Source: an uncultured Bacteroidota bacterium (GTDB taxonomy: Bacteria; Bacteroidota; Bacteroidia; Bacteroidales; UBA12481). From it: a DNA stretch of 64,000 nucleotides. The stretch is taken from the NCBI GenBank assembly GCA_903851365.1, contig CAINOB010000020.1, positions 106,986 to 170,985 of the forward strand, written 5' to 3'. Below, piece by piece: positions 658-43,709 of this stretch; the stretch's first letter is position 1; each line of letters starts with the position of its first letter. The notes under the pieces were generated by a model. The model saw only the letters and a list, made by a program, of their open reading frames with translations, searched no databases and was not told the DNA's origin. The position numbers and the translations under genes are program-made.

Positions 658-2394
658 TTAAATTTTATAAGGGATGGCGAAATAGAATTCAGTTCCCTTA
701 TTAACTTCAGATTTAAACCACATCCGGCCACCCATCAGTTCGGTATAAGCTTTGGATATCGGTAATCCCAAGCCGGCACCACCATATGGTTTGGAAAGTG
801 AGTCGTCGACCTGTTGAAATCTGGCAAAGATCGCATCAAATTTAGCAGCGGGTATTCCGATTCCCGTATCCTTAACATAGAATTCAATATTGGAATTCTG
901 CCTTACGTAACCGAATTCAATCCTGCCAGTTTTCGTAAACTTTATCGAATTTTTAAGCAGGTTCATAATAATCTGATGAAGTTTTATTTTATCAGAAATG
1001 ATATGGGAATAAGAATCTTCCATGGAACAGCCTAAAGTCACGGTTAGGTTGGCGGGATCCACCAGCGGCTTAATTTGTCCATAGATTTCGTGCATTAAAA
1101 TATTAAGGCTGAACTTTTCCTCCTTAACAACCGCGGTTCCTGATTCCACCGTTGAAAGATTAATAAGGTCAGTAATAACTCCCATTAACCGATAACTGCT
1201 CTCGACGATAATTTCAGTGAATTCAGCCCTCTCCTTTTCAACAATTCTTGGATCCTTGATCAAATCTGAAAAACCGACAATAGCATTTATCGGAGTTCTG
1301 ATCTCATGAGAAATATTATTAAGGAATGAGGTTTTTAACCGATCGCTTTCCTCTGCTTTGTCCTTGGCAATGATTAATTCAATTTCCATTTTCTTTCGTT
1401 CATCGATCTCGTTGATGAGTGTCTTTTTCTGCAGAAGAAATTCATTGATTAATTGTGCAATTCGACCAAATTCTGTTTTTTGATTTACTAATTCACTGAT
1501 TTGTTCAGTGTCCTCATCCTTCAGGCTGCTGACAAGAACTTTCAATGGACGATTTATAATTCCAATCAGAGCCCATGAAACAACAGAAAGAATTAATATT
1601 AAGATAATTGCCAGGATACTAAGACGTAAGCGAGCATCCTCGTGAAAAACCTTGGCGATTTCCACAATCCCGGTTGATGCAATAATTGCAATTGGCTTAT
1701 GGTCAAAGGCAAAAAGAGGTTTATAATTAATATATCTGAATTCTTTAGGAATAATTGAATCCTTATGATTAGCGTTGTTTTCAGGAGTAAGCAGATTTAG
1801 TTCAGTTCTGGAAATGGCACCAATTTTTTTCAAGTAATCATGGGTCCAGATTCTACCGACAAACAGGTATCCGAAGGGTGGAGATTGTCTTTTTTGGTCT
1901 ATGGTTGGATGAATGGATCCCTCACTGATTTCAATCAAATCCGAACCACTTTTTATAAAGAAGGAAGTCAATGGTTTCCCGGAAACAATTGACCTCATTT
2001 GAGTCTCTGACATTGGCAAAGTTACCAGTGCTCTTATCGAATCAATATGAGTAGAATAGATCAATGAAAGGTCCGGTCGGTATACCCAGGCATAATCTAT
2101 TTTGAACGTAGGGATTGAACTTACGATATTTTCATTGGCCCAAACAGTATCTCCAGTCTGGGCAAACTTCAACATATCGTCCCAGTAAGTATAGTCAAAA
2201 ACAAAATTATCAATGCTTTCCGAACGAAACTGGACTGCAGTATTTAATAAATCAGCACGCTGCTCCTTCTGTTTCTCGAGCAAAGATATTACCCTTTGCC
2301 AATCCAAGTGTCCACTAATAATCAGGCCCCCGACCATACAAATACCGATGGCCAGCAATAAAATAATAATCCGTTTTTGTATGCTTAAAATCAT
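658..2394 (-). CDS. Sensor histidine kinase (TM, CHASE4-like periplasmic domain, TM, coiled coil, HisKA, HATPase_c); no receiver domain and no adjacent response regulator
   Basis: H-box SFLNNISHEIRTPINAIVGFSDL. ATPase boxes KNSIKFT, VKDTGIGI, GGAGLGL. The periplasmic segment YTYWDDMLKF is CHASE4-like. ATG at 2394 forms an ATGA overlap with the stop of the upstream ORF. The longest ORF runs to 2421. Confidence 0.85.
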   Translation of the reverse strand: MILSIQKRIIILLLAIGICMVGGLIISGHLDWQRVISLLEKQKEQRADLLNTAVQFRSESIDNFVFDYTYWDDMLKFAQTGDTVWANENIVSSIPTFKIDYAWVYRPDLSLIYSTHIDSIRALVTLPMSETQMRSIVSGKPLTSFFIKSGSDLIEISEGSIHPTIDQKRQSPPFGYLFVGRIWTHDYLKKIGAISRTELNLLTPENNANHKDSIIPKEFRYINYKPLFAFDHKPIAIIASTGIVEIAKVFHEDARLRLSILAIILILILSVVSWALIGIINRPLKVLVSSLKDEDTEQISELVNQKTEFGRIAQLINEFLLQKKTLINEIDERKKMEIELIIAKDKAEESDRLKTSFLNNISHEIRTPINAIVGFSDLIKDPRIVEKERAEFTEIIVESSYRLMGVITDLINLSTVESGTAVVKEEKFSLNILMHEIYGQIKPLVDPANLTVTLGCSMEDSYSHIISDKIKLHQIIMNLLKNSIKFTKTGRIEFGYVRQNSNIEFYVKDTGIGIPAAKFDAIFARFQQVDDSLSKPYGGAGLGLPISKAYTELMGGRMWFKSEVNKGTEFYFAIPYKI

Positions 2395-3194
2395 AATTGG
2401 AAACCTATGAGTAATCCACAAAACCAGGGATAATTACCCAGGTAGGATGCAATTTCATGGTTTATTGTTTTACTTACCTGAACGTGAGGTTTAAAATAAA
2501 TAATTCCTTTCGTTTTATAGGTCAATTCGCAATTTAAACTTATCAGATTAAGAGATTTTTTTGAAGTTCCGATATAAGATTCATTGAATTTCCCGTTTCC
2601 CCAGCCTAATACTGCGGATGTATTGACGGAAAACTGCTTGCCAATCTCTTTCTCATATTGAAACCCATGTTCAAAATAGAGAGAACCAAAATAGGAAATA
2701 AAATCTGCGGACACATTGGAGGTGATAGCAAAATCACCTATCGGATAGGTAACACCAAGAAAAAATTCGCCAGTTGTTGGAGAATCCTCCATACCCAGAT
2801 AATAATAAATCATAACTGAATGTTCGAATTGGAAATTACCAAGGGACCAGGTATAGTCCAGATTTAAATCCAATTCATGCTCCCTCGTCAGGTGATGACG
2901 GTCGTACAGCGTAACACTGCTCCATAAGCCGGCTGTAAAATTCCTATATGAAGCCCATAAAAAAGGCTGAATAACCAACCCATCATTCACCGTAGTACCA
3001 CGCCATATATATTTCGAGTTAAAATCTGTTTCCAGGCCCCAGGTAATTGATTTTGCTGCACCCTCCTCAGCTGTTTTGACAGTTTCCTGGCACATTACAG
3101 ACGGACTGAAAATTATAAAACTCACAATCAGGCTGATAAATCTTAGGACATCCTTGATAAATCGACTAGAAAGCATCATAAATTCAAACTTCAT
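2391..3194 (-). CDS. Putative outer-membrane beta-barrel protein (TorF/Gcw_chp-like porin family)
   Basis: Signal peptide ending SPSVMCQE. Alternating beta-strand pattern with aromatic girdle residues. Segment SKYIWRGTTVNDGLVIQPFLWASYRNFTAGLWSS resembles the TorF-family pattern S.Y.WRG...Q....G.W.S. The C-terminal residue region ends in F-Q-L. Confidence 0.5.
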   Translation of the reverse strand: MKFEFMMLSSRFIKDVLRFISLIVSFIIFSPSVMCQETVKTAEEGAAKSITWGLETDFNSKYIWRGTTVNDGLVIQPFLWASYRNFTAGLWSSVTLYDRHHLTREHELDLNLDYTWSLGNFQFEHSVMIYYYLGMEDSPTTGEFFLGVTYPIGDFAITSNVSADFISYFGSLYFEHGFQYEKEIGKQFSVNTSAVLGWGNGKFNESYIGTSKKSLNLISLNCELTYKTKGIIYFKPHVQVSKTINHEIASYLGNYPWFCGLLIGFQL

Positions 3195-3284
3195 GTGTAT
3201 TGGGAATGTTAAAGTTAAAAAAATCGATTGAGTAGATGCACCTTATAATTACCGATTATTCGCTTTATGAATCAGATAAACCGC

Positions 3285-3292
3285 TAATTTTG
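3285..3292 (+). promoter_or_regulatory. TAATTTTG, match to the Bacteroidota sigma-A -7 box (TAnnTTTG). It lies only 4 nt before ATG 3297, so it would imply a leaderless or near-leaderless mRNA.
   Basis: Exact motif match read from the sequence. The spacing to the start codon is unusually short. Confidence 0.25.
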
Positions 3293-3296
3293 GTAC

Positions 3297-4196
3297 ATGA
3301 CAAAACAACCGCAATTCTTCGATCAATCTTCATCGCTTAACTTACCGGGATTAGCGGGTAAAGTTTGCGTTATAACAGGCGGAGCAGGAATAATAGGGCA
3401 AGCCCTTTGTCGGGGACTTGTCGCTAATCAAATCAGAACAGCCATTCTGGATATTAATCCGGAGTCAGCCAGCCGGTTGGCTCAGAAACTTGAATCCGAA
3501 ACCGGGGTTAGATGTATTGGGGTGGAGGCGGATGTTCTAAGCCGCGATTCTCTGGAGCAGGCAAAAAAAATCATTGAAACAAAACTCGGACAAGTGGACT
3601 TTCTGATAAATGGCGCCGGGGGAAATTCACCCAAGGCAACTACACATCATGAAAGCTACAGTCGGGATCAAGCAGGTGATTTGGCGGACATAAAGATAGA
3701 AAGGGGTACTTTCTTTGATCTGGATCAAGCAGGGTTTAGATTTGTCTTTGATCTTAATTTCATGGGCACGCTTTTACCCAGTCAGGTTTTTGGGGAAGAA
3801 ATGGCGAGAAGGGGAAATGGCAGTATAATAAATATCAGCTCAATGAACTCCTTTCGTCCACTTACGAAGATTCCAGCTTATTCAGCCGCAAAAGCTTCCA
3901 TCAATAATTTCACCCAATGGCTTTCCGTTCATCTTGCTCCAGTAGGAGTTCGTGTTAATGCTATTGCACCGGGTTTCTTTCTGACTGATCAGAACCGCTT
4001 CCTGTTGACCGATAAGGAGAATGGGGAGCCCACCTTACGGGGAAAGAAAATAATAAACAATACACCGATGGGCAGATATGGTGAACCTGAAAATCTGCAG
4101 GGCGCCGTACTCTTTCTACTTTCCGACCTCTCATCTTTTATAACAGGAGTTATACTGCCCATCGACGGTGGATACTCTGCTTACGGAGGAGTTTAA
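3297..4196 (+). CDS. SDR-family oxidoreductase, UxuB-like (putative D-mannonate/fructuronate oxidoreductase)
   Basis: Rossmann motif ITGGAGIIGQA. Catalytic S...YSAAK triad. Insertion FFDLDQAGFRFVFDLNFMGTLLP as I recall it from Bacteroides-type UxuB SDRs. First gene of an operon that also carries uxaC and uxaE. Confidence 0.6.
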   Translation: MTKQPQFFDQSSSLNLPGLAGKVCVITGGAGIIGQALCRGLVANQIRTAILDINPESASRLAQKLESETGVRCIGVEADVLSRDSLEQAKKIIETKLGQVDFLINGAGGNSPKATTHHESYSRDQAGDLADIKIERGTFFDLDQAGFRFVFDLNFMGTLLPSQVFGEEMARRGNGSIINISSMNSFRPLTKIPAYSAAKASINNFTQWLSVHLAPVGVRVNAIAPGFFLTDQNRFLLTDKENGEPTLRGKKIINNTPMGRYGEPENLQGAVLFLLSDLSSFITGVILPIDGGYSAYGGV

Positions 4197-5506
4197 TGAA
4201 AAATATTATTATCGCACAATCCGGAGGTCCTTCTTCCGTAATAAACAACACACTTAGAGGCATCATTGATACCTGCAGATATTTCCCCGATAAATTCGGA
4301 ACAATTTATGGCGGATGGCATGGAATAGAAGGTGTGTTGAAGGAGGAATTAATAAACCTCTCGGCCCAGCCGGAACAAGAGGTTGCCCTCCTTAGGAATA
4401 CCCCGGCAGCCGGAAGTATCGGAACCTGCCGGTACAAGCTAAAAGACCGCCAGCAAAAGGATTTCCAACGAATAATGGAGGTTTTTAAAGCTCACAATAT
4501 TGGATATTTCTTCTATATCGGTGGAAATGACTCACAGCACACCGCCTTTAAAGTCAGTGAGATGGCAAGAACAAGTGGGCTTGATCTTATCGCGGTCGGT
4601 GTACCAAAGACTATCGACAATGATGTCGGTGACAGTGACTTTCAGCTGATCGACCATACACCCGGATATGGAAGTGTAGCTCGATACTGGGCTTATGCAA
4701 TCCAATCGGCCAACGAAGAAAATAGCGGATCAGCACCTGCCGACCCAGTGCTGGTTTTGCAAGCTATGGGGCGAAAAATTGGCTATATTCCTGCAGCTGC
4801 CCGATTAGCCGATCCACATCGCGAGATGCCCCTGCAGATTTACATGGCAGAATCCGGAGTCAGTGCCCGGGAAATGGCCGACAAAGTAAATGACCAGTTA
4901 AAAAAAGATGGTCGGTGCATCGTGGTGGTGAGTGAAGGGTTTGAATTGAAAAATGAAGGAAAAGAGGATGGAATAATTGCTGACAGTGTTCAGCATGTAA
5001 AAGATTCGTTTGGTCATATCATTTATGGAGCCACGAAAACCGCCGCATACCAGCAAGTTGTCAACTATCTTAATGACGTAGGCCTTAAAGCCCGCGGATC
5101 AGCGCGAGGACAAGTTCCTGGAACTGACCAGCGGCATGCCATGGCTTTTGCTTCCACCGTCGATTTGGATGAAGCTTATAAAGTTGGGCAGAAAGCTGTG
5201 GATATTGCTCTTAACGAAGGAAATGGATGGATGGCAACTATTCTGAGGGATCCCGGCCCGATATATCATGTTCGTTATGATAAAGTGGCTCTCGAAAAGG
5301 TCGCCCTTTCAGAACGGAGTTTTCCCGATAAATGGATCGCCCCGGGCAGGGTGGACGTAACTGATGATTTTATCAGTTATGCCACACCTCTGATCGGTTT
5401 AGACTGGCCATCAATACCTCTGGTTAATGGGCTTCAGAGATTTACCAGATTCAACCTCATATTTGCACAAAAAAAACTGGACAATTATAAACTCGAAGCG
5501 GAATGA
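4196..5506 (+). CDS. Phosphofructokinase-family (PFK/PfpB-like) sugar kinase with PPi-type signature residues
   Basis: PFK motifs SGGPSSVINN, GSIGTCRY, IGGNDSQ, PKTIDNDV, QAMGRKIGY, VVSEG, GTDQRHA. The start overlaps the SDR stop (TAATG). Confidence 0.75.
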   Translation: MKNIIIAQSGGPSSVINNTLRGIIDTCRYFPDKFGTIYGGWHGIEGVLKEELINLSAQPEQEVALLRNTPAAGSIGTCRYKLKDRQQKDFQRIMEVFKAHNIGYFFYIGGNDSQHTAFKVSEMARTSGLDLIAVGVPKTIDNDVGDSDFQLIDHTPGYGSVARYWAYAIQSANEENSGSAPADPVLVLQAMGRKIGYIPAAARLADPHREMPLQIYMAESGVSAREMADKVNDQLKKDGRCIVVVSEGFELKNEGKEDGIIADSVQHVKDSFGHIIYGATKTAAYQQVVNYLNDVGLKARGSARGQVPGTDQRHAMAFASTVDLDEAYKVGQKAVDIALNEGNGWMATILRDPGPIYHVRYDKVALEKVALSERSFPDKWIAPGRVDVTDDFISYATPLIGLDWPSIPLVNGLQRFTRFNLIFAQKKLDNYKLEAE

Positions 5507-6393
5507 ATGCTATGACCAATCACGATATTTTGTCAAATCTCAGGCCCGACAAGGACTTTTTCATTGGCATTGATTCCGATGGCTGTGCTTTTGATACGAT
5601 GGAAATCAAACAAAAAGAGTGTTTTTGTCCGAACTTCATAAAATTCTGGGGTTTTCAACCGGTGGCAACTGCTGCCAGGCAAACCTGGGAATTTGTTAAC
5701 CTGTATTCATCGCATCGCGGCACCAATAGATTCCTTGCCGTGATTGAAACTTTCCGGTTACTGAGTGAACGAAAAGAGGTCAGGGCCAGGAATTTTAAAA
5801 TGCCGGAAATTACTGCCCTGAAGGAATGGGTAAGAAATGAAACACGATTGGGCAACCCCGTTTTAGCTGAATATGCGGCAATAGTAAAGGACCCTGAAAT
5901 TGACCGCGCATTGGCCTGGTCGAAAAAAGTAAATGAGGATATCAGCCAAATGATCTTCGGCATTCCGCCATTTCCTATGGTCAGGGAAAGTTTGGCCCGC
6001 CTCAAGGATTCGGCTGATATGATTGTTGTTTCGCAAACTCCGGTTGAAGCGCTAAAACGCGAATGGGAAGAACATGATATTGACAAGTATACCAAGCTGA
6101 TCGCGGGTCAGGAATTCGGCACAAAATCCGAACATTTGAAATTCGCTGCGAAAGGAAAATATCCCGATTCACATATCCTGATGATCGGGGATGCTCCGGG
6201 TGACCTGAAAGCCGCACGCAATAATGGTGTTTTGTTCTACCCCATCAATCCTGGCACCGAGGATATTTCGTGGGAGCGATTTTATAAAGAAGGTATCGAC
6301 AAATTTCTGACAGGACAATTTATCGGATCCTATCAGGATAAATTGATTGCTGATTTCGATAAATTATTGCCTGTAACACCTTACTGGGCATAA
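5503..6393 (+). CDS. HAD-superfamily hydrolase (putative sugar-phosphate/acid-sugar phosphatase)
   Basis: HAD motif I IGIDSDGCAFDT (DxDG), motif III K, motif IV MIGDAPGDLKAA. ATGA overlap with the PFK-like gene. Confidence 0.7.
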   Translation: MNAMTNHDILSNLRPDKDFFIGIDSDGCAFDTMEIKQKECFCPNFIKFWGFQPVATAARQTWEFVNLYSSHRGTNRFLAVIETFRLLSERKEVRARNFKMPEITALKEWVRNETRLGNPVLAEYAAIVKDPEIDRALAWSKKVNEDISQMIFGIPPFPMVRESLARLKDSADMIVVSQTPVEALKREWEEHDIDKYTKLIAGQEFGTKSEHLKFAAKGKYPDSHILMIGDAPGDLKAARNNGVLFYPINPGTEDISWERFYKEGIDKFLTGQFIGSYQDKLIADFDKLLPVTPYWA

Positions 6394-6396
6394 ATA

Positions 6397-7665
6397 ATGA
6401 TTCTATTTTCCAATGGATCGGAGCATCACGACCTTACCGACAGCGATTTAAAGGAAGGTTTGTACGCAGCGCTCAGCAAAATTGGGAGCCGTAAGAGAAT
6501 ATTGCTCATTCCCCCTGATATCACCCGAATCCATTCGAGAGCTGGTGAATTAACCGCAATGGCCTGGAATTATTATGGGGATAAGGTTTCGGATATATTA
6601 CCGGCACTCGGGACGCACAAACCCATGAATTCGGGTGAATTGGATCGAATGTTTCCCGGCCTTCCCCACAGCCTTTTCAGGGTGCACGATTGGCGAAATG
6701 ATATTACCAGGTTAGGTGAAGTTCCTTCGGATTTCATTTCAAAAGTCTCCGATGGAGCATTAAATTATATAGTGCCGGTTGAACTAAACACACTGATTTG
6801 CAATGGGAAACACGACTTGATCCTATCATTGGGCCAGGTTGTGCCACATGAGGTTATCGGCATGGCTAACTACAATAAAAACCTTCTCATCGGTTGCGGA
6901 GGTCCTGAAAGCATCAATAAGAGTCATTTTCTTGGAGCTGTTTTTGGGATGGAACGTATGATGGGCATTGCCGACACTCCGGTACGCCAGGTTCTTAATT
7001 ATGCTTCCGATCATTTTCTGACTCATCTGCCTGTGGTTTATGTGCTGACTGTACTCGAGCAGGTTTCATCGAGCGAAAATCAGAAAGAAATGGCTACACG
7101 CGGCTTGTTTATCGGCACCTCAGAAGATGTGTTTCTGGCTGCGGCAGCGTTATCTGCAAAAGTCAACAATACTAAACTTGATAAGCCACTAGAAAAAGTG
7201 GTAGTTCACCTTGATCCTGAGGAATATCGGAGCACATGGTTGGGAAACAAGTCGATTTACCGCACTCGAATGGCTATTGCAAATGGTGGTGAACTGATTG
7301 TTCTCGCCCCTGGGGTGAAGGAGTTTGGGGAAGATCCGGAAATCGACAGGCTAATCAGGAAATACGGATACCATGGCACACCGGCTACCCTCGATGCCGT
7401 TAAAAACAACAGTGATCTGAACAATAACCTTAGTGCTGCTGCTCATTTGATTCATGGCAGTAGCGAAGGAAGGTTCAGAATTACTTATTGTCCCGGTCAC
7501 CTTTCGAAGGAAGAAATTGAAAATGTGGGATATGAGTTTGGTGATCTCCAATCGATGGAAAATCGTTTTATTTACGAGAATCTTCACGATGGGTACAATC
7601 ATAATTCCGCAGGTGAAGAGTTTTACTATATATCTAATCCGGCCACCGGATTATGGCAAACATGA
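6397..7665 (+). CDS. LarA-like (DUF2088, nickel-pincer-nucleotide-dependent alpha-hydroxy-acid racemase/epimerase family) protein
   Basis: PPDITRI (LarA SDHTRP), ALGTHKP (LarA ATGFHRP), and VVPH-x9-K-x15-H (H151, K161, H177). This reproduces the LarA H174/K184/H200 spacing without gaps. Confidence 0.7.
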   Translation: MILFSNGSEHHDLTDSDLKEGLYAALSKIGSRKRILLIPPDITRIHSRAGELTAMAWNYYGDKVSDILPALGTHKPMNSGELDRMFPGLPHSLFRVHDWRNDITRLGEVPSDFISKVSDGALNYIVPVELNTLICNGKHDLILSLGQVVPHEVIGMANYNKNLLIGCGGPESINKSHFLGAVFGMERMMGIADTPVRQVLNYASDHFLTHLPVVYVLTVLEQVSSSENQKEMATRGLFIGTSEDVFLAAAALSAKVNNTKLDKPLEKVVVHLDPEEYRSTWLGNKSIYRTRMAIANGGELIVLAPGVKEFGEDPEIDRLIRKYGYHGTPATLDAVKNNSDLNNNLSAAAHLIHGSSEGRFRITYCPGHLSKEEIENVGYEFGDLQSMENRFIYENLHDGYNHNSAGEEFYYISNPATGLWQT

Positions 7666-8819
7666 AATTTATTATCGACGATAAGATTCCTTTTATCAGA
7701 GGGGTTTTTGAACCTTTTGGTGATGTGGTCTATCTTCCAGGTGCAGCAATCGTGAAGAAAGATCTCCTCGATGCAGACTGCTTGCTGGTAAGAACAAGAA
7801 CCCATTGCGACCGGGATCTTCTTGAAGGAACACCGGTGAAATTCATCGCAACCGCCACTATCGGATTCGATCATATTGATACCGGATGGTGCGAGACCAA
7901 TGGAATAGCCTGGACAAATTCACCTGGTTGCAATTCGGGATCAGTGGCTCAATATATTACTGCGGCACTTCTTGAAATTGCCGACAGACTGGGGTTTGAT
8001 CTAAAGGATAAAACTATTGGAATTATAGGTGCCGGTAATGTTGGAAAAAAAGTAGAAAGAATTGCACGACTGTTAGGCATGACAGTTTTAGTCAACGATC
8101 CTCCCCGTGAAAGGGACGAAGGTCCGGAGCATTTCACCAGTCTGCCGGTCCTTCTGCAAAACTCAGATATAGTTACCTTGCATGTTCCGTTGAACCGCGA
8201 AGGAGAAGATAAAACATTTCATATGGTTGGCAGGCAATTTCTTAAAGATTTGAAACCCGGAGCCACCCTGATAAATTCTTCTCGCGGAGAAGTAGTTAAT
8301 GAGGCAGAAGTTGTGAGGGTTTTTAGGGAGTTCAGTCAGTTAGGTGAGTTAAAGAAGCCCGGTCTTTTGGTGATTGATGTTTGGGAGAATGAGCCAGAAA
8401 TAAACAGGGAATTATTAGACCTGGCGGCCATTGCTACTCCTCATATTGCAGGATATTCACAGGATGGTAAACACAATGCAACCCGAATGATCACGGATGC
8501 CACATGCAATTTCTTTGGTCTGACCGGAGATGCAGAAACGTTGAACATAGAACCATTAAGTTGCGAAAACCTTACATTGAAACCAACCTCAAGTCATCAG
8601 TCACTAATCACCTGTCACTCTATTGTGCGTGCCACTTACAATATCCTTGCCGATGATCTTCTCCTTCGGGAATCACCAGAAACTTTCGAAAAACAACGTA
8701 ATAATTATCCGATCCGACGGGAATTCAGCGCCTATACAATCGATCCGTTCCCGGAAGGGGAAATAGGACAGATCCTTAAAGGACTGAGATTTAAAAATGC
8801 AAATAACAAATTGATTTAA
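7662..8819 (+). CDS. pdxB: D-isomer-specific 2-hydroxyacid dehydrogenase, PdxB-like (4-phosphoerythronate dehydrogenase family)
   Basis: N-terminus MKFIIDDKIPFIRG. NAD fold GIIGAGNVGKKV. Catalytic SSRGEVV / ENEP / HIAGYS. C-terminal extension as in PdxB. ATG 7662 gives an ATGA overlap with the LarA-like stop. The ORF track starts at 7653. Confidence 0.6.
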   Translation: MKFIIDDKIPFIRGVFEPFGDVVYLPGAAIVKKDLLDADCLLVRTRTHCDRDLLEGTPVKFIATATIGFDHIDTGWCETNGIAWTNSPGCNSGSVAQYITAALLEIADRLGFDLKDKTIGIIGAGNVGKKVERIARLLGMTVLVNDPPRERDEGPEHFTSLPVLLQNSDIVTLHVPLNREGEDKTFHMVGRQFLKDLKPGATLINSSRGEVVNEAEVVRVFREFSQLGELKKPGLLVIDVWENEPEINRELLDLAAIATPHIAGYSQDGKHNATRMITDATCNFFGLTGDAETLNIEPLSCENLTLKPTSSHQSLITCHSIVRATYNILADDLLLRESPETFEKQRNNYPIRREFSAYTIDPFPEGEIGQILKGLRFKNANNKLI

Positions 8820-8842
8820 TATACTTTAATGCATCAGGCATT

Positions 8843-10273
8843 ATGAATAATAAAAGTAACATCGGCCTTATCGGCCTCGCCGTAATGGGAGAAAATCTGG
8901 TGATGAATATGGCAAATCACGGATTTAATGTGAGTGTTTTTAATCGTTCACCCGAGAGAACAGATAAATTTCTTGCCGGTGGAGCCAAGGGAAAAACTAT
9001 TAAGGGATTCCACACCCTTGAGGAATTTGTCGCCTCATTGGAAAGCCCTAAGAAAGTCATGATGATGGTAAAAGCGGGCACCCCGGTTGACGACCTTATT
9101 GAGCAATTGATACCGCTTATGGAGAAGGGCGATGTTATTATCGATGGCGGAAACAGCCATTATCCTGATACCAACAGACGAACTGCATACGTTGAGAGCC
9201 GTGGTTTATTTTTCATCGGCACCGGCGTATCCGGCGGGGAAGAAGGTGCACTCAAGGGCCCCTCCATTATGCCTGGCGGATCAAGAGCAGCCTGGGAACT
9301 CGTTAAACCAATATTCCAGACGATAGCTGCTAAAGTGGAAGGTGGCACGCCCTGTTGCGAATGGGTGGGAGAAAACGGAGCCGGTCATTTTGTCAAGATG
9401 GTTCATAACGGAATTGAATATGGCGATATGCAGCTTATCTGTGAAGCTTATCAGATCATGAAAGATCGCCTCCACCTTTCACCGGATGAGATGTCGGCAG
9501 TATTTGCCGAGTGGAACAAAGGAGAATTGGACAGCTATCTGATTGAAATAACTGCAGATATCCTGAAATTTAAAAACGAGGAGGGAAAACACCTGGTTGA
9601 TCTTATCCTGGATGCCGCCGGGCAAAAAGGGACCGGTCAATGGACTGCCAAGGCGGCCCTTGAACTTGGCGTTCCACTGACATTGATCACCGAATCGGTA
9701 TTTTCGCGCAGCCTGTCAGCTATGAAAGAAGAACGGGTATTAGCAGCTGATACTCTAAAAGACAAAAGACTTCAAGACATTAAGACGAATAGACAGGAAG
9801 ACCTGAAGAAAGCGATTGAAGAAATCAGACAAGCGTTGTATGCCGCCAAGATCATTTCTTATACCCAGGGATATATGCTGATGCAAGCTGCTGCAAAAGA
9901 ATATGGATGGAATCTGAATTATGGCGGAATCGCTTTGATGTGGCGGGGTGGCTGTATTATCCGTTCTGCTTTCCTTGGCAAAATTAAAGAGGCTTATGAG
10001 CGTGATTCCACCTTGACCAACCTGCTGCTGGATCCATTTTTCCGAGGTCAGATTGAAAAATCACAAAGTTCCTGGCGAAAAGTTGTATCTGAAGCCATAC
10101 TAACTGGAATTCCGGTACCAGCACTCTCAGCATCAATTTCCTTTTTCGACGGATATCGCAGCGAGCGACTGCCAGCAAACTTATTACAAGCTCAACGTGA
10201 CTATTTCGGCGCCCATACTTATGAGCGGATCGACCGCCGACGGGGAGAGTTTTTTCATACTCAATGGATTTAG
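8843..10273 (+). CDS. gnd: 6-phosphogluconate dehydrogenase, decarboxylating
   Basis: IGLIGLAVMGENLVMNMANHGF NADP fold. GHFVKMVHNGIEYGDMQLICEAY signature. 476 aa, full-length. Confidence 0.95.
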   Translation: MNNKSNIGLIGLAVMGENLVMNMANHGFNVSVFNRSPERTDKFLAGGAKGKTIKGFHTLEEFVASLESPKKVMMMVKAGTPVDDLIEQLIPLMEKGDVIIDGGNSHYPDTNRRTAYVESRGLFFIGTGVSGGEEGALKGPSIMPGGSRAAWELVKPIFQTIAAKVEGGTPCCEWVGENGAGHFVKMVHNGIEYGDMQLICEAYQIMKDRLHLSPDEMSAVFAEWNKGELDSYLIEITADILKFKNEEGKHLVDLILDAAGQKGTGQWTAKAALELGVPLTLITESVFSRSLSAMKEERVLAADTLKDKRLQDIKTNRQEDLKKAIEEIRQALYAAKIISYTQGYMLMQAAAKEYGWNLNYGGIALMWRGGCIIRSAFLGKIKEAYERDSTLTNLLLDPFFRGQIEKSQSSWRKVVSEAILTGIPVPALSASISFFDGYRSERLPANLLQAQRDYFGAHTYERIDRRRGEFFHTQWI

Positions 10274-10284
10274 AAAAAAGCAAA

Positions 10285-11697
10285 ATGAAACCATTTCCAG
10301 ATTCGAAATTTCTCCTGACCAATCCTGTTGCAGAACGTCTTTATTCAGGTCAGGCTGCTAAAATGCCGGTAATCGATTACCATTCGCATTTGAGTCCCAG
10401 GATGATTGCTGAGGACCATCAATTTGAGAATCTGACCCAGGCATGGTTATACGGTGATCACTATAAATGGAGGGCCATGAGGGCTAATGGCGTGCCCGAA
10501 AGATACATTACCGGTGATGCCACTGATTACGAAAAATTCGAGAAATGGGCTGAGACAGTGCCTTACACCATGGGAAATCCACTCTTTCACTGGACCCATC
10601 TTGAACTACAACGTTACTTTGGAATCACCAGTCAACTGTCACCGGTCACCTGCCACAGTATTTACGAGAAAGCTTCGGCCATGCTAAGAACCGCCGAATT
10701 CTCTGTTCACTCCCTTCTCGAAAAAATGAATGTTGAATTGGTTTGTACAACAGATGATCCGCTGGATTCACTCGATTATCATCGTAGTATCGCCGATTCA
10801 GACTGGGGCATTAAAGTGCTGCCAACCTGGCGCCCGGATAAAGTTCTTGCATTCGATCAGACCGAAAACTGGAACCGTTATGTGGATACACTGGCCTCAA
10901 TAACCGGTATTCAAATTACCCATTTTCAAGATCTCCTGAATGCACTTCAAGTCCGTCATGATTATTTTCATAACCATGGATGCAGGCTTTCAGATCACGG
11001 GTTGGAATCCTTTCCGCCTCTTGATATCAACCCCTCAGAAACTGAAGATGCTTTTCAAACCATCCGGCTTCAAAAAGAAGGCCTTAAAGGCCCGGGTCTT
11101 AGTCAACAAATGGCAGGTGTGACACTTCTGGCCCTGGCGTGCATGGATGCTGATAAAGGCTGGGTTCAACAATTTCACCTCGGTGCACTCCGCAACAGTA
11201 ATAGCAGGAGCCTCTCTGTGCTTGGGCCAGATACCGGCTTTGATTCCATCAGCGATATTCCTGTTGCGCAACCGATGGCAAGGTTTCTCGACCATCTGGA
11301 ATCAGAAGGTAAGCTTGCAAAAACCATCCTCTACAACCTTAATCCTGCACAAAACGAGGTATTTGCCTCTATGACAGGGAACTTTCAGGATGGATCAGTT
11401 CCTGGAAAAATACAATGGGGATCAGCTTGGTGGTTCCTCGATCAAAAAGAAGGTATGGAGACGCAGCTTAAAACACTGGCCAATTTCGGTCTGCTAAGCA
11501 GATTCGTAGGAATGCTTACCGACTCCCGCAGCTTTCTTTCCTACCCCAGGCATGAGTATTTCCGGCGCGTACTTTGCAATTTCATTGGAGAATCAGTTGA
11601 ACGCGGGGAATGGCCGGACAACGAAACTTGGCTCGGTGAAATGGTTGAGAATATTTGTTATCGAAACGCCGTAAATTATTTTGAATTTGATCAATAA
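10285..11697 (+). CDS. uxaC: Glucuronate isomerase (uronate isomerase)
   Basis: MKPFPDSKFLL N-terminus. Metal site IDYHSHLSP. YGDHYKWRAMRANG. About 470 aa. The ORF track extends to 10264, but ATG 10285 matches the usual UxaC start. Confidence 0.9.
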   Translation: MKPFPDSKFLLTNPVAERLYSGQAAKMPVIDYHSHLSPRMIAEDHQFENLTQAWLYGDHYKWRAMRANGVPERYITGDATDYEKFEKWAETVPYTMGNPLFHWTHLELQRYFGITSQLSPVTCHSIYEKASAMLRTAEFSVHSLLEKMNVELVCTTDDPLDSLDYHRSIADSDWGIKVLPTWRPDKVLAFDQTENWNRYVDTLASITGIQITHFQDLLNALQVRHDYFHNHGCRLSDHGLESFPPLDINPSETEDAFQTIRLQKEGLKGPGLSQQMAGVTLLALACMDADKGWVQQFHLGALRNSNSRSLSVLGPDTGFDSISDIPVAQPMARFLDHLESEGKLAKTILYNLNPAQNEVFASMTGNFQDGSVPGKIQWGSAWWFLDQKEGMETQLKTLANFGLLSRFVGMLTDSRSFLSYPRHEYFRRVLCNFIGESVERGEWPDNETWLGEMVENICYRNAVNYFEFDQ

Positions 11698-11734
11698 CCT
11701 CCCTCAGGCAGCTAATTATTAATACAAATTTCTG

Positions 11735-12955
11735 ATGGTACTAGAAAAGTTCTCGTTCGGTATTGGCGATCGTTTTGGGAAGGAAGGCAAGGCTCAGCTC
11801 AGAGCTATCCAGGAAATTAACCGTCAGGGATTTCCTGTGGTACCAGTGTGGAATAAATCGAACCGCGAGCATGAGTTGGTTGGAACCACCCAACAGGCAG
11901 TAAGGATGGAAGCCGACGAAGCAGTAAAAGTAAATGGCTGGAATGAAAATTATTATGTAGATGCCGATCATATTACAATGGCCAATGTTGACCGGTTCAT
12001 TGATGTCAGCGATTTTTTCACATTAGATGTAGCCAGTTTCATTGGCAGGCCTGCTGATGCAAAACTAAAATCTGATTTTCTCAAGCGTACTCCCGCAACC
12101 GGAATTCCGGGTTTCAGTGAAGAAGAGGCAATATATGACATTTCACTTTTTGCAGATAATTACCTGACAGCCATCCAGGAAGTTAAAAGGTTGCATGAGT
12201 ATATTAAATCAAAAAAACCATCAGGGATTATTGAGATATCCATGGATGAGGTTTCGATGGCACAGAGTCCGCTCGACCTTTATTTCATTCTAAAAGAACT
12301 TAAACTTGCTGATATTGAACCACATACTATCGCTCCGAAATTCACGGGTTTATTTCCCAAGGGAGTTGATTATGAAGGAGATAAGGAAGTATTTGCCCAT
12401 GAATTTGAGCAGGATGTTCAGATATTAAACCTCGTAAGCGATCGATTGGAGTTCAACCATGACATTAAACTCAGCATCCACTCCGGCTCCGATAAATTCT
12501 CAATTTATCCCCTGATGCGGGACATCATTTTCAAGAACCATTCAGGCATACATATTAAAACTGCAGGAACAACCTGGCTCGAGGAAGTTATTGGCCTGGC
12601 AAGGGGTGGAGGCGATGGGTTGCGACTGGCCAAGGAAATATATTGTCAGGGAATCAAACGATTTGAGGAGCTTTCAGCCCCCTATTCTTCAGTCCTGCAC
12701 CTTGATAACAAACAGCTCCCACCACCAAAAGAGGTCCTCAGCTGGAATTCAGCCCGGTTTTCAAAAACCTTGATTCATGATCAGAGCTGTCGGGATTATA
12801 ATCTCCATTTCAGGCAACTTGTACATATTTCTTATAAAATAGCCGCTGAAATGGGAACAGAATTCATGGATGCCCTGGATCATTATCGCGAGCCCATTGA
12901 GGAACAAGTATATACCAATCTGTTTGACAGGCACTTGAGGAGGATATTCAGATAG
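11735..12955 (+). CDS. uxaE: Tagaturonate/fructuronate epimerase (UxaE family)
   Basis: SFGIGDRFGKEG, YYVDADHI and SIHSGSDKFSIYP motifs as I recall them for the UxaE family. The gene sits next to uxaC. Confidence 0.6.
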   Translation: MVLEKFSFGIGDRFGKEGKAQLRAIQEINRQGFPVVPVWNKSNREHELVGTTQQAVRMEADEAVKVNGWNENYYVDADHITMANVDRFIDVSDFFTLDVASFIGRPADAKLKSDFLKRTPATGIPGFSEEEAIYDISLFADNYLTAIQEVKRLHEYIKSKKPSGIIEISMDEVSMAQSPLDLYFILKELKLADIEPHTIAPKFTGLFPKGVDYEGDKEVFAHEFEQDVQILNLVSDRLEFNHDIKLSIHSGSDKFSIYPLMRDIIFKNHSGIHIKTAGTTWLEEVIGLARGGGDGLRLAKEIYCQGIKRFEELSAPYSSVLHLDNKQLPPPKEVLSWNSARFSKTLIHDQSCRDYNLHFRQLVHISYKIAAEMGTEFMDALDHYREPIEEQVYTNLFDRHLRRIFR

Positions 12956-12986
12956 GTATCGGGTATCGGGTATCGGGTATCGGGTT
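12956..12986. repeat. Heptanucleotide tandem repeat (GTATCGG, register TCGGGTA), about 4 units, starting immediately after the uxaE TAG stop
   Basis: Read directly: tag gtatcgg gtatcgg gtatcgg gtatcgg gtt. Confidence 0.95.
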
Positions 12987-13002
12987 CCCGCTTTCGCGGG
13001 AA
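12985..13002. terminator. Perfect 7-bp GC-rich hairpin (ttcccgc-tttc-gcgggaa) between the convergent uxaE and GH94-like genes. Possible bidirectional terminator, but without a clear U-tract.
   Basis: The inverted repeat is read directly. The loop is GAAA on the minus strand. There is no T-run on either side. Confidence 0.35.
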
Positions 13003-13023
13003 TGAGAGAGAAAGGCTTTGTGA

Positions 13024-41650: not shown

Positions 41651-42490
41651 ATGGAGAATAAGATTATTCTGATCACAGGAGCTAATTCCGGTATTGGAAA
41701 GGCAACAGCCACTGCTCTGGCTGAAATGGGAGCCCATGTGGTCATGATGTCACGTGATATGAACAGGGGTGAGGAAGCACGACAGGAGGTCATGTTTATC
41801 AGTAAAAGTAACCAAGTTGACCTATTGCAGTGCGATCTTGCTAGTTTATCTGATGTCCGACGGTTTTCGTGTGACTTCATTGCCAGATATTCACGGCTGG
41901 ATGTCTTGATCAACAATGCCGGCATTTACACCGAAAAGAGGATGGAAACTGTCGATGGATATGAATATCAGATCGGCGTGAATCACCTGGGACATTTTCT
42001 TCTTACCCGGATGCTGCTCGACCTGATGAAAAAGAGTTCTCCGTCCCGGATTATCAATGTTGCCTCAGGAGCTCATTTTGGCGGAAAAATTGATTTCGCC
42101 GATATCCAGTCAACCAGAAAATATTCAGGTTGGAAAGCTTATGCCCAGGCAAAACTTGCTAACATCCTATTTACCTATGAACTGGCGCACCGCCTCGAAG
42201 ACACAGGAGTCACCGCAAATTGCCTGCACCCGGGATTCGTCAACAGCCGGTTTGGCGTAAACCGCTCCACCGGTAAAGCAAACCTGATGATGAAACTCAT
42301 GAAACCCTTTACCATAGAACCTTCTGCCGGAGCCGAAACTTCAATTTACCTCGCGGCATCCCCGGAGGTTGAGGGTGTCACTGGAAAATATTTTGCTAAA
42401 AGAAAAGAAAAGGCATCCTCCAAGGCATCATACGATCTGGTAAGTGCGGAAAAACTGTGGAATCTTAGTGAGGCCCTTACCGCAAAATAA
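41651..42490 (+). CDS. SDR-family oxidoreductase (retinol-dehydrogenase/WW-domain-oxidoreductase-like subgroup)
   Basis: ITGANSGIGKATA, NNAGI, S...YAQAKLANILF catalytic motif. Confidence 0.8.
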   Translation: MENKIILITGANSGIGKATATALAEMGAHVVMMSRDMNRGEEARQEVMFISKSNQVDLLQCDLASLSDVRRFSCDFIARYSRLDVLINNAGIYTEKRMETVDGYEYQIGVNHLGHFLLTRMLLDLMKKSSPSRIINVASGAHFGGKIDFADIQSTRKYSGWKAYAQAKLANILFTYELAHRLEDTGVTANCLHPGFVNSRFGVNRSTGKANLMMKLMKPFTIEPSAGAETSIYLAASPEVEGVTGKYFAKRKEKASSKASYDLVSAEKLWNLSEALTAK

Positions 42491-42503
42491 AATATATTAA
42501 AGC

Positions 42504-43709
42504 ATGTTTTCCGATAAAATTGTCATATCCGGAACCGGCTGTGCCCTTGCCGATTACTTATATACCGGAATTAAGTTCAACAGTCCCGAATTCCTGAAAT
42601 ACCAGTCGAAGGAAGGTGGTGATGGAGGGTTATCGCCGGGAAAGTTAGTTTTTACGGAAGAACTGGAGAAATTCTCATCAACCCCCTATCCGGAGATTTT
42701 CTCGCAATTAACCGGTGATAAACAGGCTGATTCGATAAATATCGGCGGGCCTGGTTTGGTTTCACTTATTAATACTTCACAACTTCTCAATCCTTCTGAA
42801 TTTCAAGTTTCTTATTACGGTGGAGCTGGCAATGATGAAACAGCCGATTTTATCTTCAATCTTCTGCAGAAAACACCGCTGGACATCTCAAATTATAAAA
42901 GAATCGGCGCAAAATTCACTCCATTTACCCATGTTCTTTCTGATCCCACTTACGACAATAATCATGGGGAAAGAACATTTATCAATAATATAGGTGCTGC
43001 CTGGGATTACACGCCCGACCTCATTCACAATGATTTTTTCAAGTCTGATCTTGTCTGTTTCGGGGGCACTGCTCTTGTGCCTCAGATACACGATCATTTA
43101 ACCGGGCTGCTTGGCAAGGCTAAGGATAACAGGTGCATGACAGTAGTAAATACGGTTTTTGATTTCCGTAATGAGAAACTGAATCCCGGACAAGCCTGGC
43201 CTTTGGGAAATACTTCCGAAAGCCTTAAGCTGATTGACCTTTTAATTATGGATTGTGAAGAATCGCTGAGAATAAGCGGCTGCCATACTATTGAAGAGGC
43301 GGCCGACTATTTTGCCGGGCAAAATGTAGCCTCCTTCATTATTACGAACGGCATCAGAAACCTCTTTGCATTTTCAAATGGCAAGGTCTTCCGAAAAACC
43401 GGTATCATCCAGTTTCCTGTATCAACAAAAGTTGTTGAAACGATAAAACTATTTCCAGATCTCAAGGGGGATACAACGGGTTGTGGCGACAATTTTGCCG
43501 GTGGAGCTATTGCTTCTATCGCCCGGCAATTGAAAACCAGCCAAAAAGGTGATTTTGACTTAGAGGATACGATTGCCTGGGCCACTGCCTCCGGTGGATT
43601 TGCCTGTTACTGCGTTGGAGGAACCTATGTGGAAGCGAAATCCGGGGAAAAATTGGAGAAGGTCAGCGATCTGGTAAAGGATTATAAAAGCCAAATTTCA
43701 AAATTGTGA
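42504..43709 (+). CDS. PfkB-family carbohydrate kinase, unusually long (401 aa)
   Basis: C-terminal ATP/anion-hole motif DTTGCGDNFAGGAIAS. N-terminal GTGCALADY. Roughly 70-90 aa longer than typical ribokinase-family members. Confidence 0.75.
   Translation: MFSDKIVISGTGCALADYLYTGIKFNSPEFLKYQSKEGGDGGLSPGKLVFTEELEKFSSTPYPEIFSQLTGDKQADSINIGGPGLVSLINTSQLLNPSEFQVSYYGGAGNDETADFIFNLLQKTPLDISNYKRIGAKFTPFTHVLSDPTYDNNHGERTFINNIGAAWDYTPDLIHNDFFKSDLVCFGGTALVPQIHDHLTGLLGKAKDNRCMTVVNTVFDFRNEKLNPGQAWPLGNTSESLKLIDLLIMDCEESLRISGCHTIEEAADYFAGQNVASFIITNGIRNLFAFSNGKVFRKTGIIQFPVSTKVVETIKLFPDLKGDTTGCGDNFAGGAIASIARQLKTSQKGDFDLEDTIAWATASGGFACYCVGGTYVEAKSGEKLEKVSDLVKDYKSQISKL

Follow-up and report, generated by a model that had tools for sequence, protein, structure and literature searches.

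A PFK-family and HAD gene pair in the kinase slot of a probable LarA-type hexuronate operon from an uncultured Bacteroidales bacterium

A 64-kb stretch of DNA from an uncultured Bacteroidales bacterium (the window, whose positions serve as coordinates throughout) carries eight plus-strand open reading frames (ORFs) in a tight array at positions 3297-12955. We consider it probable, on balance, that this operon is a variant of the published hexuronate pathway that joins the isomerase route to the pentose-phosphate pathway, with a phosphofructokinase (PFK)-family protein and a HAD-family protein supplying the phosphorylation step and with substrates predicted from the genes and their context. The part of this reading that leads to 6-phosphogluconate and its dehydrogenase, Gnd, is well supported. 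More tentatively, and with rather less confidence, we propose that this PFK branch and its co-translated HAD partner carry out a pyrophosphate (PPi)-driven phosphorylation of a carboxylate sugar, either as a fructuronate 1-kinase or by relay from fructose-1,6-bisphosphate (FBP) to mannonate or gluconate, and that they have repeatedly replaced an ATP-dependent PfkB kinase in this role, with a PdxB-like enzyme guarding Gnd.

The operon runs, in order, from a UxuB-type short-chain dehydrogenase/reductase (SDR) through the PFK-family protein, the HAD protein, a LarA homolog, the PdxB-like protein, Gnd and UxaC to a UxaE-like protein. Its junctions are a TAATG at 4194-4198 and ATGA overlaps at 5503-5506 and 7662-7665, the remaining gaps being 3, 23, 11 and 37 nt, so that the ORF coordinates and our reading of the junctions confirm the eight co-directional, closely packed genes described in the initial annotation. 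The array is not a chance arrangement; the same order is found in about 150 independent loci. Scans for sigma-70 promoters and intrinsic terminators found no internal signal above the shuffled expectation, and since the counts equal that expectation the scans are uninformative. Among the ORFs scanned across the window (those of at least ~150 aa, plus end fragments) we found no uxuA, kdgK, eda, zwf, pgl, gntK or larB/C/E; the claimed absence of UxuA, KdgK, KdgA, zwf and pgl from the operon thus holds and extends to these ORFs. There is likewise no GntK, FGGY or PfkB-type hexonate kinase in the operon, where PFK-family and HAD genes fill the position that a PfkB gene holds in relatives.

The upper-pathway enzymes and Gnd are identified by profile matches, as the initial annotation had proposed. 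The SDR (3297-4196) scores 376 bits against a cut-off of 281 for NF006132, the profile of an SDR-type fructuronate reductase/D-mannonate oxidoreductase; UxaC, the glucuronate/galacturonate isomerase (10285-11697), scores 601 bits against 387 for NF002794; and Gnd (8843-10273) scores 769 bits against 427 for TIGR00873, the NADP-type decarboxylating 6-phosphogluconate dehydrogenase. The longest uxaC ORF begins at 10264, and gene calls on identical contigs take the start that gives 470 aa. The last gene (11735-12955) encodes a short UxaE-family protein, a predicted tagaturonate/fructuronate epimerase, which finds no NCBIfam match; Pfam UxaE is its only profile match (172 bits), and it aligns with Cohnella UxaE (6ILB) at 91 bits, spanning 6ILB residues 93-415. 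UxaC, UxaE and a fructuronate reductase, the set expected of the upper half of the hybrid pathway, are thus all encoded here, and a candidate C2 epimerase and Gnd are encoded together with one gene between the two.

The candidate C2 epimerase is the LarA homolog (6397-7665), a clear member of LarA homolog (LarAH) group 18: it scores 633 bits against a cut-off of 500 for NF052594, the curated NCBIfam model for group 18 named "nickel-dependent putative hexonate epimerase", and is 60% identical to ACP_2683, a published group-18 member. By alignment, H108, H174, D72, R75, K184, H200 and K298 of L. plantarum LarA correspond to H74, H151, D41, R44, K161, H177 and K285, and the catalytic residues and those that bind the cofactor, nickel-pincer nucleotide (NPN), are unchanged in all 18 homologs aligned. 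The group-18 substrate signature consists of E and V after the second His, W-L-x-N-K, and SAAAHLIHGS; here E152, V153, W281, L282 and N284, together with the motif LSAAAHLIHGSSEGRF, are the same as in ACP_2683, the C-terminal part of this agreement resting on motif identity because the MAFFT alignment did not recover the published register there. The nearest solved structure is the T. maritima GntE2 apoprotein 4NAR (133 bits), and identity to TM0442 is only 27%. Some GenBank records label close homologs "D-mannonate epimerase". Groups 19 and 20 are D-gluconate 2-epimerases by assay and group 18 is a predicted hexonate epimerase (Desguin et al. 2020, PMC7583248), and the E, V, W substrate signature is common to the window protein and the proven gluconate 2-epimerases. 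We therefore predict that the LarA homolog is a nickel-pincer-dependent C2 epimerase of D-mannonate and D-gluconate or of their 6-phosphates. For mannonate, the group-19 enzyme shows a Km of 120 mM, and its native substrate was doubted (PMC7583248); a Km this high would fit phosphorylated substrates for enzymes of this clade.

A pathway of this kind has been published. For Thermotoga maritima, Rodionova et al. (2012; cited in PMC7583248 and PMC6978723) proposed that mannonate is converted to gluconate by GntE, then to 6-phosphogluconate by GntK, and passed to the pentose-phosphate pathway; GntE epimerase activity was later demonstrated, and GntE2 is LarAH20 (Desguin et al. 2020, PMC7583248). 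Extracts of L. suebicus contain a kinase for mannonate and a 6-phosphomannonate 2-epimerase followed by Gnd, with the genes left unassigned (Valk et al. 2020, PMC6978723). With the concept already in print, the claim of novelty for the pathway fails, and the statement in the initial annotation that no such pathway had been described was wrong. As the T. maritima proposal is given in the papers that cite it, UxaE-UxuB-GntE-GntK-Gnd follows the same logic as the route predicted for the operon here (UxaC/UxaE, SDR reductase, putative LarA-family C2 epimerase, putative kinase, Gnd), with mannonate diverted to the pentose-phosphate pathway in both; the differences are that the epimerase here is of group 18, with a predicted activity, and that a PdxB-like gene is added. 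The published group-20 context has a COG1070 sugar kinase (PMC7583248), whereas the kinase position here is taken by the PFK-family and HAD genes. The operon would share with L. suebicus the upper isomerase pathway, phosphorylation, C2 epimerisation, 6-phosphogluconate and Gnd, and a redox-neutral route to ribulose-5-phosphate, and the kinase-first order of L. suebicus fits a gene order in which the kinase precedes the epimerase. There, the activities were detected in extracts, the candidate kinases are gluconate-kinase homologs and phosphoketolase lies downstream (PMC6978723), whereas the system described here is known from its genes. The canonical Ashwell isomerase pathway has UxaC and fructuronate reduction in common with it; the lower half of that pathway (dehydratase, 2-keto-3-deoxygluconate (KDG) kinase and 2-keto-3-deoxy-6-phosphogluconate aldolase) is absent from the operon and from the ORFs scanned in the window, and both branches are clustered in some relatives.

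We assessed how far this gene association extends by scanning species-representative genomes with an alignment of group-18 LarA homologs (LarAH18). The scan yielded 80 loci, with 59-65% identity to the query in every case, distributed over Bacteroidota, Verrucomicrobiota, Planctomycetota, Acidobacteriota, Ignavibacteriota, Spirochaetota and other phyla. To annotate the loci, denoted here by L numbers, we ran tblastn with the proteins of the window and clustered the ORFs that remained; LarAH18 counts refer to the 53 loci flanked on both sides by at least 3 kb. In ~150 loci from several phyla the recurring order is SDR, a kinase slot, LarAH, a GFO/IDH/MocA-family and/or PdxB-like gene, and Gnd, with UxaC, UxaE, LacI and MFS or TRAP transporters near this core. 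Gnd accompanies LarAH18 in 40 of the 53 loci and SDR in 39, followed by UxaC (25), UxaE (25), GFO/IDH/MocA (16), PdxB-like (14), Eda (5) and UxuA (4). The SDR, Gnd, kinase and UxaC components agree with the published group-18 context (Desguin et al., Tables S1 and S3), in which the frequencies in Table S1 are 36% for SDR, 32% for Gnd, 16% for a ribokinase-family kinase and 12% for UxaC (PMC7583248); that survey, covering three genes per side in 25 genomes, did not report associations with PFK, HAD, PdxB-like or GFO/IDH/MocA genes. This association of genes is strongly conserved across genomes, and the 53-locus context together with the LarA residues supports the proposed route from hexuronate through fructuronate, mannonate and C2 epimerisation to 6-phosphogluconate and ribulose-5-phosphate. 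The further suggestion that this route operates instead of KDG formation goes too far: the lower KDG genes are missing from the operon and from the ORFs scanned in the window, but UxuA, Eda and a KdgK-like kinase lie in the same cluster in some relatives, and the UxuA and Eda counts indicate that some organisms have the LarA and KDG branches side by side.

What distinguishes the window operon is the occupant of the kinase slot. A PfkB-family kinase holds this slot in 20 of the 53 LarAH18 loci; its best family matches are KDG and IolC-type acid-sugar kinases, all under cut-offs, and it is ~27% identical to the KdgK-like kinase found next to Eda in the same loci (L011, L057, L080). The slot is instead filled by PFK followed by HAD in the window, L002, L004, L025, L052, L055 and L079. 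Searching metagenomes with the PFK-like protein, we obtained 76 loci of its subfamily (52-100% identity), in which, among loci with enough flank for each count, HAD is directly downstream in 42 of 58, SDR upstream in 45 of 58, LarAH18 present in 38 of 50 and Gnd in 32 of 38. None of these partners was found beside seven distant PFKs (37-39% identity), bar one distant PdxB-like match in L165, and five further look-ups of PFK or HAD homologs led to the same cluster every time. PFK-like and slot PfkB genes never occur together (0/76 PFK loci, 0/53 LarAH18 loci), and on a LarAH tree of 103 loci the state of the slot switches ~25 times. The clearest case is a pair of collinear operons, L075 (a Melioribacter metagenome-assembled genome) and L083 (bacterium BRH_c32), which share the order DUF4861-UxaC-UxaE-Eda-SDR-[X]-LarAH-Gnd-transketolase at 57-86% protein identity and in which X is a PfkB kinase in L075 and PFK plus HAD in L083. 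This displacement of PfkB in situ by non-orthologous genes is our main reason for reading PFK plus HAD as the phosphorylation step, and the claim that the PFK-family protein is the pathway kinase is in this way supported indirectly, by its confinement to the clusters, its exclusivity with PfkB and its replacement of PfkB at the same position. In the sampled loci the PFK-like subfamily is confined to hexuronate clusters, L133, L145 and L147 being without LarAH, and this context argues against a general glycolytic role. L147 (637-4480) has a PFK-like gene of 56% identity, which is flanked by a gene for a 438-aa protein, family 4 glycosidase-like by eye, and by a distant member of the UxaE family; next come genes for a regulator and an ABC sugar-binding protein, and LarAH, HAD and Gnd are absent from the locus. 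A PfkB-family gene elsewhere in the window, at 42504-43709, was considered as the missing kinase and set aside, being unrelated to the LarAH-adjacent PfkB family and without an NCBIfam match.

The PFK-like protein (4196-5506) belongs to the PRK14072 subfamily of PPi-dependent PFKs (NF010675, 377 bits against 273) and aligns at 250 bits with the PPi-PFK structures 3HNO and 3K2Q, with which it shares fold, length and catalytic residues. Relative to E. coli PfkA, its own subfamily retains R72, T125, D127, D129, M169, R171, E222, R243 and R252, carries subfamily-specific insertions and has the replacements G104 to D, G124 to K, R162 to P and H249 to T. The D104/K124 pair, which is shared with the PPi-PFKs and occurs in all nine subfamily members aligned, is what we take to be the signature of PPi-type PFKs, and on this basis the enzyme is predicted to be PPi-dependent. 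It differs from PRK14072 PPi-PFKs in P162, T249, the insertions and its occurrence solely in hexuronate clusters beside a HAD gene, and it is separate from generic members, with at most 39% identity to those sampled (L159-L165). At the fructose-6-phosphate 6-phosphate site, R243 and R252 are retained, and P and T stand at 162 and 249. The catalytic and sugar-binding machinery thus appears intact with one or two 6-phosphate ligands lost, a pattern that would be compatible with a fructofuranose-like carboxylate substrate such as fructuronate; since positions 162, 243 and 249 vary in generic relatives too, the pattern is not diagnostic for substrate.

Its partner (5503-6393) is predicted to be a phosphotransferase of HAD-IA type, a phosphatase or a mutase by class, whose helical cap is enlarged (Pfam HAD_2, 28 bits against 23.8). 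It is a near-obligate neighbour of the PFK-like gene, whose stop codon overlaps its start (ATGA). The HAD motifs are all invariant (D24-S-D26-G-C, S177, K208/K219 and G229-D-A-P-G-D234), as are many arginines of the cap, and its features are those of subfamily IA; in the AlphaFold2 model (pLDDT 92.8) residues 33-149 form the cap helices. A search of its sequence against the PDB gave no significant match, and the fold search gave generic HAD-IA matches (a generic HAD phosphatase, beta-phosphoglucomutase and a mannitol-1-phosphate phosphatase domain, TM 0.4-0.5) without a functional assignment. HAD and slot PfkB genes do not co-occur in the 53 LarAH18 loci, against an expected 3-4 (Fisher p = 0.008, phylogeny ignored).

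Gene content, conserved residues, synteny and the displacement of the kinase are thus observed directly. Taken together, the genes would support the following route, in which all substrates, the question of whether kinase or epimerase acts first, the donor of the phosphoryl group and regulation are matters of prediction. UxaC would convert glucuronate to fructuronate and galacturonate to tagaturonate, the UxaE-like protein would convert tagaturonate to fructuronate, and the SDR would reduce the C5 keto group to give D-mannonate. Inversion at C2 by the group-18 LarA homolog through its nickel-pincer cofactor and phosphorylation of the terminal CH2OH would then yield 6-phosphogluconate, from which Gnd would form ribulose-5-phosphate and regain the NAD(P)H spent by the reductase. 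In most relatives the phosphorylation would be carried out by the KdgK/IolC-like PfkB, and here by the PFK-family enzyme with HAD. In the sub-mechanism we prefer, as a working choice held with some doubt, the PFK-like enzyme would phosphorylate D-fructuronate, a mimic of fructose-6-phosphate, at C1 with PPi as donor, or would act on the hexonate, with HAD as an auxiliary phosphatase. C1 of D-fructuronate would be C6 of 5-dehydro-mannonate, and IolC-type kinases phosphorylate the same carbon in 5-dehydro-2-deoxygluconate; both occupants of the slot would therefore fit one substrate. In that case the acid would already be phosphorylated when the SDR and LarA homolog act on it, which is the situation in L. 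suebicus.

Several observations weigh against this reading. The proteins of the operon are known from genes alone, the activity of LarAH group 18 is a prediction, and larB, larC and larE, for NPN biosynthesis, are not among the ORFs scanned in the window. In the PFK-like protein, retention of R243, R252, M169, R171 and E222 leaves a normal fructose-6-phosphate or sedoheptulose-7-phosphate substrate possible, and R162P and H249T are partly present in generic PFK relatives. PFK>HAD>Gnd and PFK>Gnd arrangements also occur without SDR or LarAH nearby (L145 and L133), HAD stands beside LarAH without PFK in ~7 loci (L008, L019, L042, L045, L049, L061, L070), and it is hard to see where a phosphatase would fit in a linear catabolic route. 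Moreover, 14 Gnd-containing clusters are without any kinase. Among the neighbouring ORFs of HAD-only or kinase-less clusters (GH28-like, helicase fragments, membrane, GH105-like, DapF-like and flavodoxin-like proteins, and others) we found no alternative kinase. In some clusters gnd is followed by transketolase (L075, L083) or, in three of PFK/HAD type, by a class II FBP aldolase (L008, L025, L167), and the co-occurrence statistics ignore shared ancestry. We considered the class II aldolase as a fructuronate-1-phosphate aldolase and rejected it, as it is a Pfam F_bP_aldolase protein that by eye looks like a housekeeping E. coli-type FbaA.

The accessory genes between the LarA homolog and Gnd bear on the same question. 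The PdxB-like D-2-hydroxyacid dehydrogenase (7662-8819, with a start possibly at 7653) has the full PdxB architecture, namely the 2-Hacid_dh catalytic and NAD domains and the DUF3410 dimerisation domain; it scores 433.2 against a cut-off of 434 for the PdxB equivalog model NF001309, 0.8 bit short, and 274 against 687 for a second PdxB model. It aligns over its full length, from residue 1, with the PdxB structures 3OET, 5DT9 and 2O4C at 240-250 bits. Of the 53 loci, 14 have a gene of this type placed after the LarA homolog and before Gnd, in several lineages. In 16 of the 53 loci (L004, L005, L009, L010 and L012 among them, with L084 and L166 as further carriers), a 330-aa GFO/IDH/MocA oxidoreductase, whose best family match is iolG, under cut-off, directly follows LarAH and precedes Gnd, sometimes alongside the PdxB-like gene. 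Three metagenome loci (L131, L136, L142) combine PFK-like, HAD, PdxB-like and Gnd with a group-19-type LarA homolog that shares 51% identity with Trad_0660, of group 19, and 30% with the window protein, so that the PFK/HAD/PdxB-like/Gnd module is not confined to group 18. The Gnd inhibitor 4-phosphoerythronate is potent and intoxicates B. subtilis on gluconate, and HAD-type phosphatases clear it in eukaryotes (PMC6449344); it is therefore reasonable to propose that the PdxB-like enzyme, and possibly HAD as well, protects Gnd. Most likely, the PdxB-like enzyme is an accessory that removes 4-phosphoerythronate or reduces a 2-keto-6-phosphohexonate. Like the known 4-phosphoerythronate proofreading systems (yeast Pho13, mammalian PGP and B. 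subtilis CpgA; PMC6449344), the operon would place a HAD of PGP-like class, and in addition a PdxB-like enzyme, beside Gnd, and it would also send all pathway carbon through Gnd. In none of the tests run, however, does the HAD emerge as an ortholog of Pho13 or PGP; it tracks the PFK-like gene rather than gnd, and the likeness is purely one of proposed function.

These features leave room for four other explanations, which we weigh against the reading of PFK plus HAD as the phosphorylation step. One is that the PdxB-like gene is simply the vitamin B6 gene of the organism, beside gnd by ancestry and with no role in hexuronate use, as its full-length similarity to true PdxB structures, its near-threshold equivalog score and its absence from 39 of the 53 clusters would suggest; we find this rather unlikely, given that the LarAH-PdxB-Gnd position is kept in several lineages, that the gene also travels with PFK, HAD, Gnd and a group-19 LarA homolog (L131, L136, L142), and that it stays with gnd in L002, where two inserted genes split the operon. 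Alternatively, the PFK-like enzyme could be an ordinary PPi-dependent fructose-6-phosphate/sedoheptulose-7-phosphate 1-kinase that handles the pentose-phosphate and glycolytic flux made by Gnd, for example in a transaldolase-free pathway, with HAD and PdxB-like protecting Gnd and the hexonate kinase encoded elsewhere. This would account for the intact sugar-binding and catalytic residues and the closest structures being PPi-PFKs, for transketolase or aldolase genes adjoining gnd, for PFK>HAD>Gnd without SDR or LarAH in L145, and for the 14 kinase-free clusters, and it draws on the same inhibition of Gnd by 4-phosphoerythronate and its removal by HAD-type phosphatases. We nevertheless regard it as unlikely: this subfamily is found in hexuronate clusters only and not beside other pathways that generate pentoses; it is never found with the KdgK/IolC-like PfkB, which it replaces at the same position in collinear operons; and that PfkB groups with acid-sugar kinases rather than with Pfk-2, FruK or LacC.

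The fact that two proteins replace one PfkB kinase is best explained by a phosphoryl relay, in which the PFK-like enzyme would make FBP from fructose-6-phosphate and PPi and the HAD aspartate would take up the phosphoryl group and pass it to mannonate or gluconate, the pair acting as a PPi-driven hexonate kinase. The retained fructose-6-phosphate-type residues, the overlap and near-constant adjacency of the two genes, the HAD protein's DxD motif of phosphatases and mutases and many invariant cap arginines, and the presence of beta-phosphoglucomutase, which can be phosphorylated by FBP, among the HAD fold neighbours all fit such a relay, and it best accounts for the HAD-only clusters, which could draw on cellular FBP. 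Yet it is without precedent, no dedicated HAD inter-molecular phosphotransferase of such a kind being known, the fold matches are generic and the case is built on inference; we rate it as quite unlikely. Finally, the group-18 LarA homolog might epimerise some other acid, for instance fructuronate to 5-keto-gluconate, or an aldarate, with another step order or substrate for the pathway. Its activity being a prediction, the doubted native substrate of the group-19 enzyme (Km 120 mM for mannonate, PMC7583248), and the GFO/IDH/MocA (16/53) and PdxB-like (14/53) oxidoreductases between the LarA homolog and Gnd are in keeping with this idea. It is improbable, and the least probable of the four, in that SDR, Gnd and UxaC/UxaE form the dominant context and the E, V, W signature is shared with proven gluconate 2-epimerases; in addition, mannonate reaches the substrate of Gnd by C2 inversion only, which counts for mannonate/gluconate epimerisation.

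What appears new in the operon is a dedicated PFK-like protein with its HAD partner in the position where related operons have an ordinary sugar-acid kinase. A literature search on phosphomannonate, mannonate kinase, fructuronate kinase and the combination of PFK with LarA returned the L. suebicus paper alone, and a dedicated PFK/HAD module, its repeated exchange with PfkB and the recurrent PdxB-like and GFO/IDH/MocA accessories appear to be undescribed.

Identical proteins are found on European Nucleotide Archive (ENA) metagenome contigs of up to 506 kb, and a related complete genome of 5.4 Mb (L002) has the same operon, interrupted by two genes: at L002 11402-15581, between LarAH and PdxB-like, lie a Big_9/PKD gene and an oppositely oriented gene for a 1144-aa CARDB/type IX secretion protein. 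Upstream of the operon, the window begins within a plus-strand MFS transporter gene, of which the 3' part is present (39-647) and which is a candidate uronate/hexonate importer. The 202-aa fragment alone gives no Pfam match; the full gene, at an equal offset on the 506-kb contig of the same species, encodes 454 aa with an MFS_1 domain, and the arrangement is kept in L002. A CHASE4 sensor histidine kinase gene (658-2421, minus strand; Pfam CHASE4, HisKA and HATPase_c), divergent from the operon and with no adjoining response regulator gene, is a possible regulator whose association with the operon is uncertain; L002 has it in an equal position, where most other loci carry a LacI regulator. Co-oriented with it is a gene for a 267-aa protein (2391-3194, minus strand) without a Pfam or NCBIfam match, whose L002 counterpart has a weak Gcw_chp match. 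A candidate promoter element, TAATTTTG (3285-3292, plus strand), precedes the first start codon by 5 nt and is the sole intergenic plus-strand match across 3151-13000 to TAnnTTTG, which we take to be the Bacteroidota -7 promoter consensus. Read from the sequence, the region at 12957-13007, between the convergent uxaE-like and GH94-like genes, is a probable terminator, in which a GC-rich hairpin (CCCGC-TTTC-GCGGG) comes after four GTATCGG heptamers in tandem.

Elsewhere in the window, the minus strand at 13024-36312 carries a polysaccharide-utilisation locus, for which SOGP domains suggest beta-1,2-glucan as the substrate. It encodes a GH94-like protein of the 1,2-beta-oligoglucan phosphorylase type (SOGP, 1116 aa), a GH35 protein, an MFS_2 transporter, an F5/8 type C protein, two PF10091 'glucoamylase' proteins, which we take to be GH144-like, a Laminin_G_3/Big_5 protein, SusD, SusC and a Y_Y_Y sensor. 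A second, small sugar cluster, on the plus strand at 41651-44920, comprises an SDR, a 401-aa PfkB-family kinase that lacks an NCBIfam match and has no relation to the LarAH-adjacent PfkB family, and a mannitol-dehydrogenase-family protein that falls under every mannitol-1-phosphate dehydrogenase cut-off. Beside an MntP manganese exporter gene, the plus strand also encodes, at 55543-56832, a protein of 429 aa in which the class II aldolase/adducin domain occurs twice; its best match, which scores 184 bits where the cut-off is 250, is to 3-oxo-tetronate 4-phosphate decarboxylase.

For anaerobic Bacteroidota and their neighbours, the hexuronates of pectin, hemicellulose and host glycans are a major source of carbon, and a redox-neutral route through 6-phosphogluconate alters fermentation balances and has been sought for the engineering of galacturonate fermentation. 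The LarA-dependent branch is widespread in Bacteroidota, Ignavibacteriota, Planctomycetota, Verrucomicrobiota, Acidobacteriota and Spirochaetota, with a core and variable slots that are now defined, and it offers candidate genes in other phyla for the kinase and epimerase steps that are genetically unassigned in L. suebicus. An acid-sugar kinase made of PFK and HAD would widen the chemistry of two well-studied families, and use of PPi would explain how energy-limited anaerobes save ATP on this pathway. Interest in the pair would rise further if the PFK-like enzyme acts on a uronate or works through HAD: a direct fructuronate 1-kinase would be, to our knowledge, the first PFK-family enzyme with a substrate other than a sugar phosphate. 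If the proposal is true, the PFK/HAD system replaces PfkB in a widespread anaerobic route by which the sugars of pectin and glucuronan enter the pentose-phosphate pathway.

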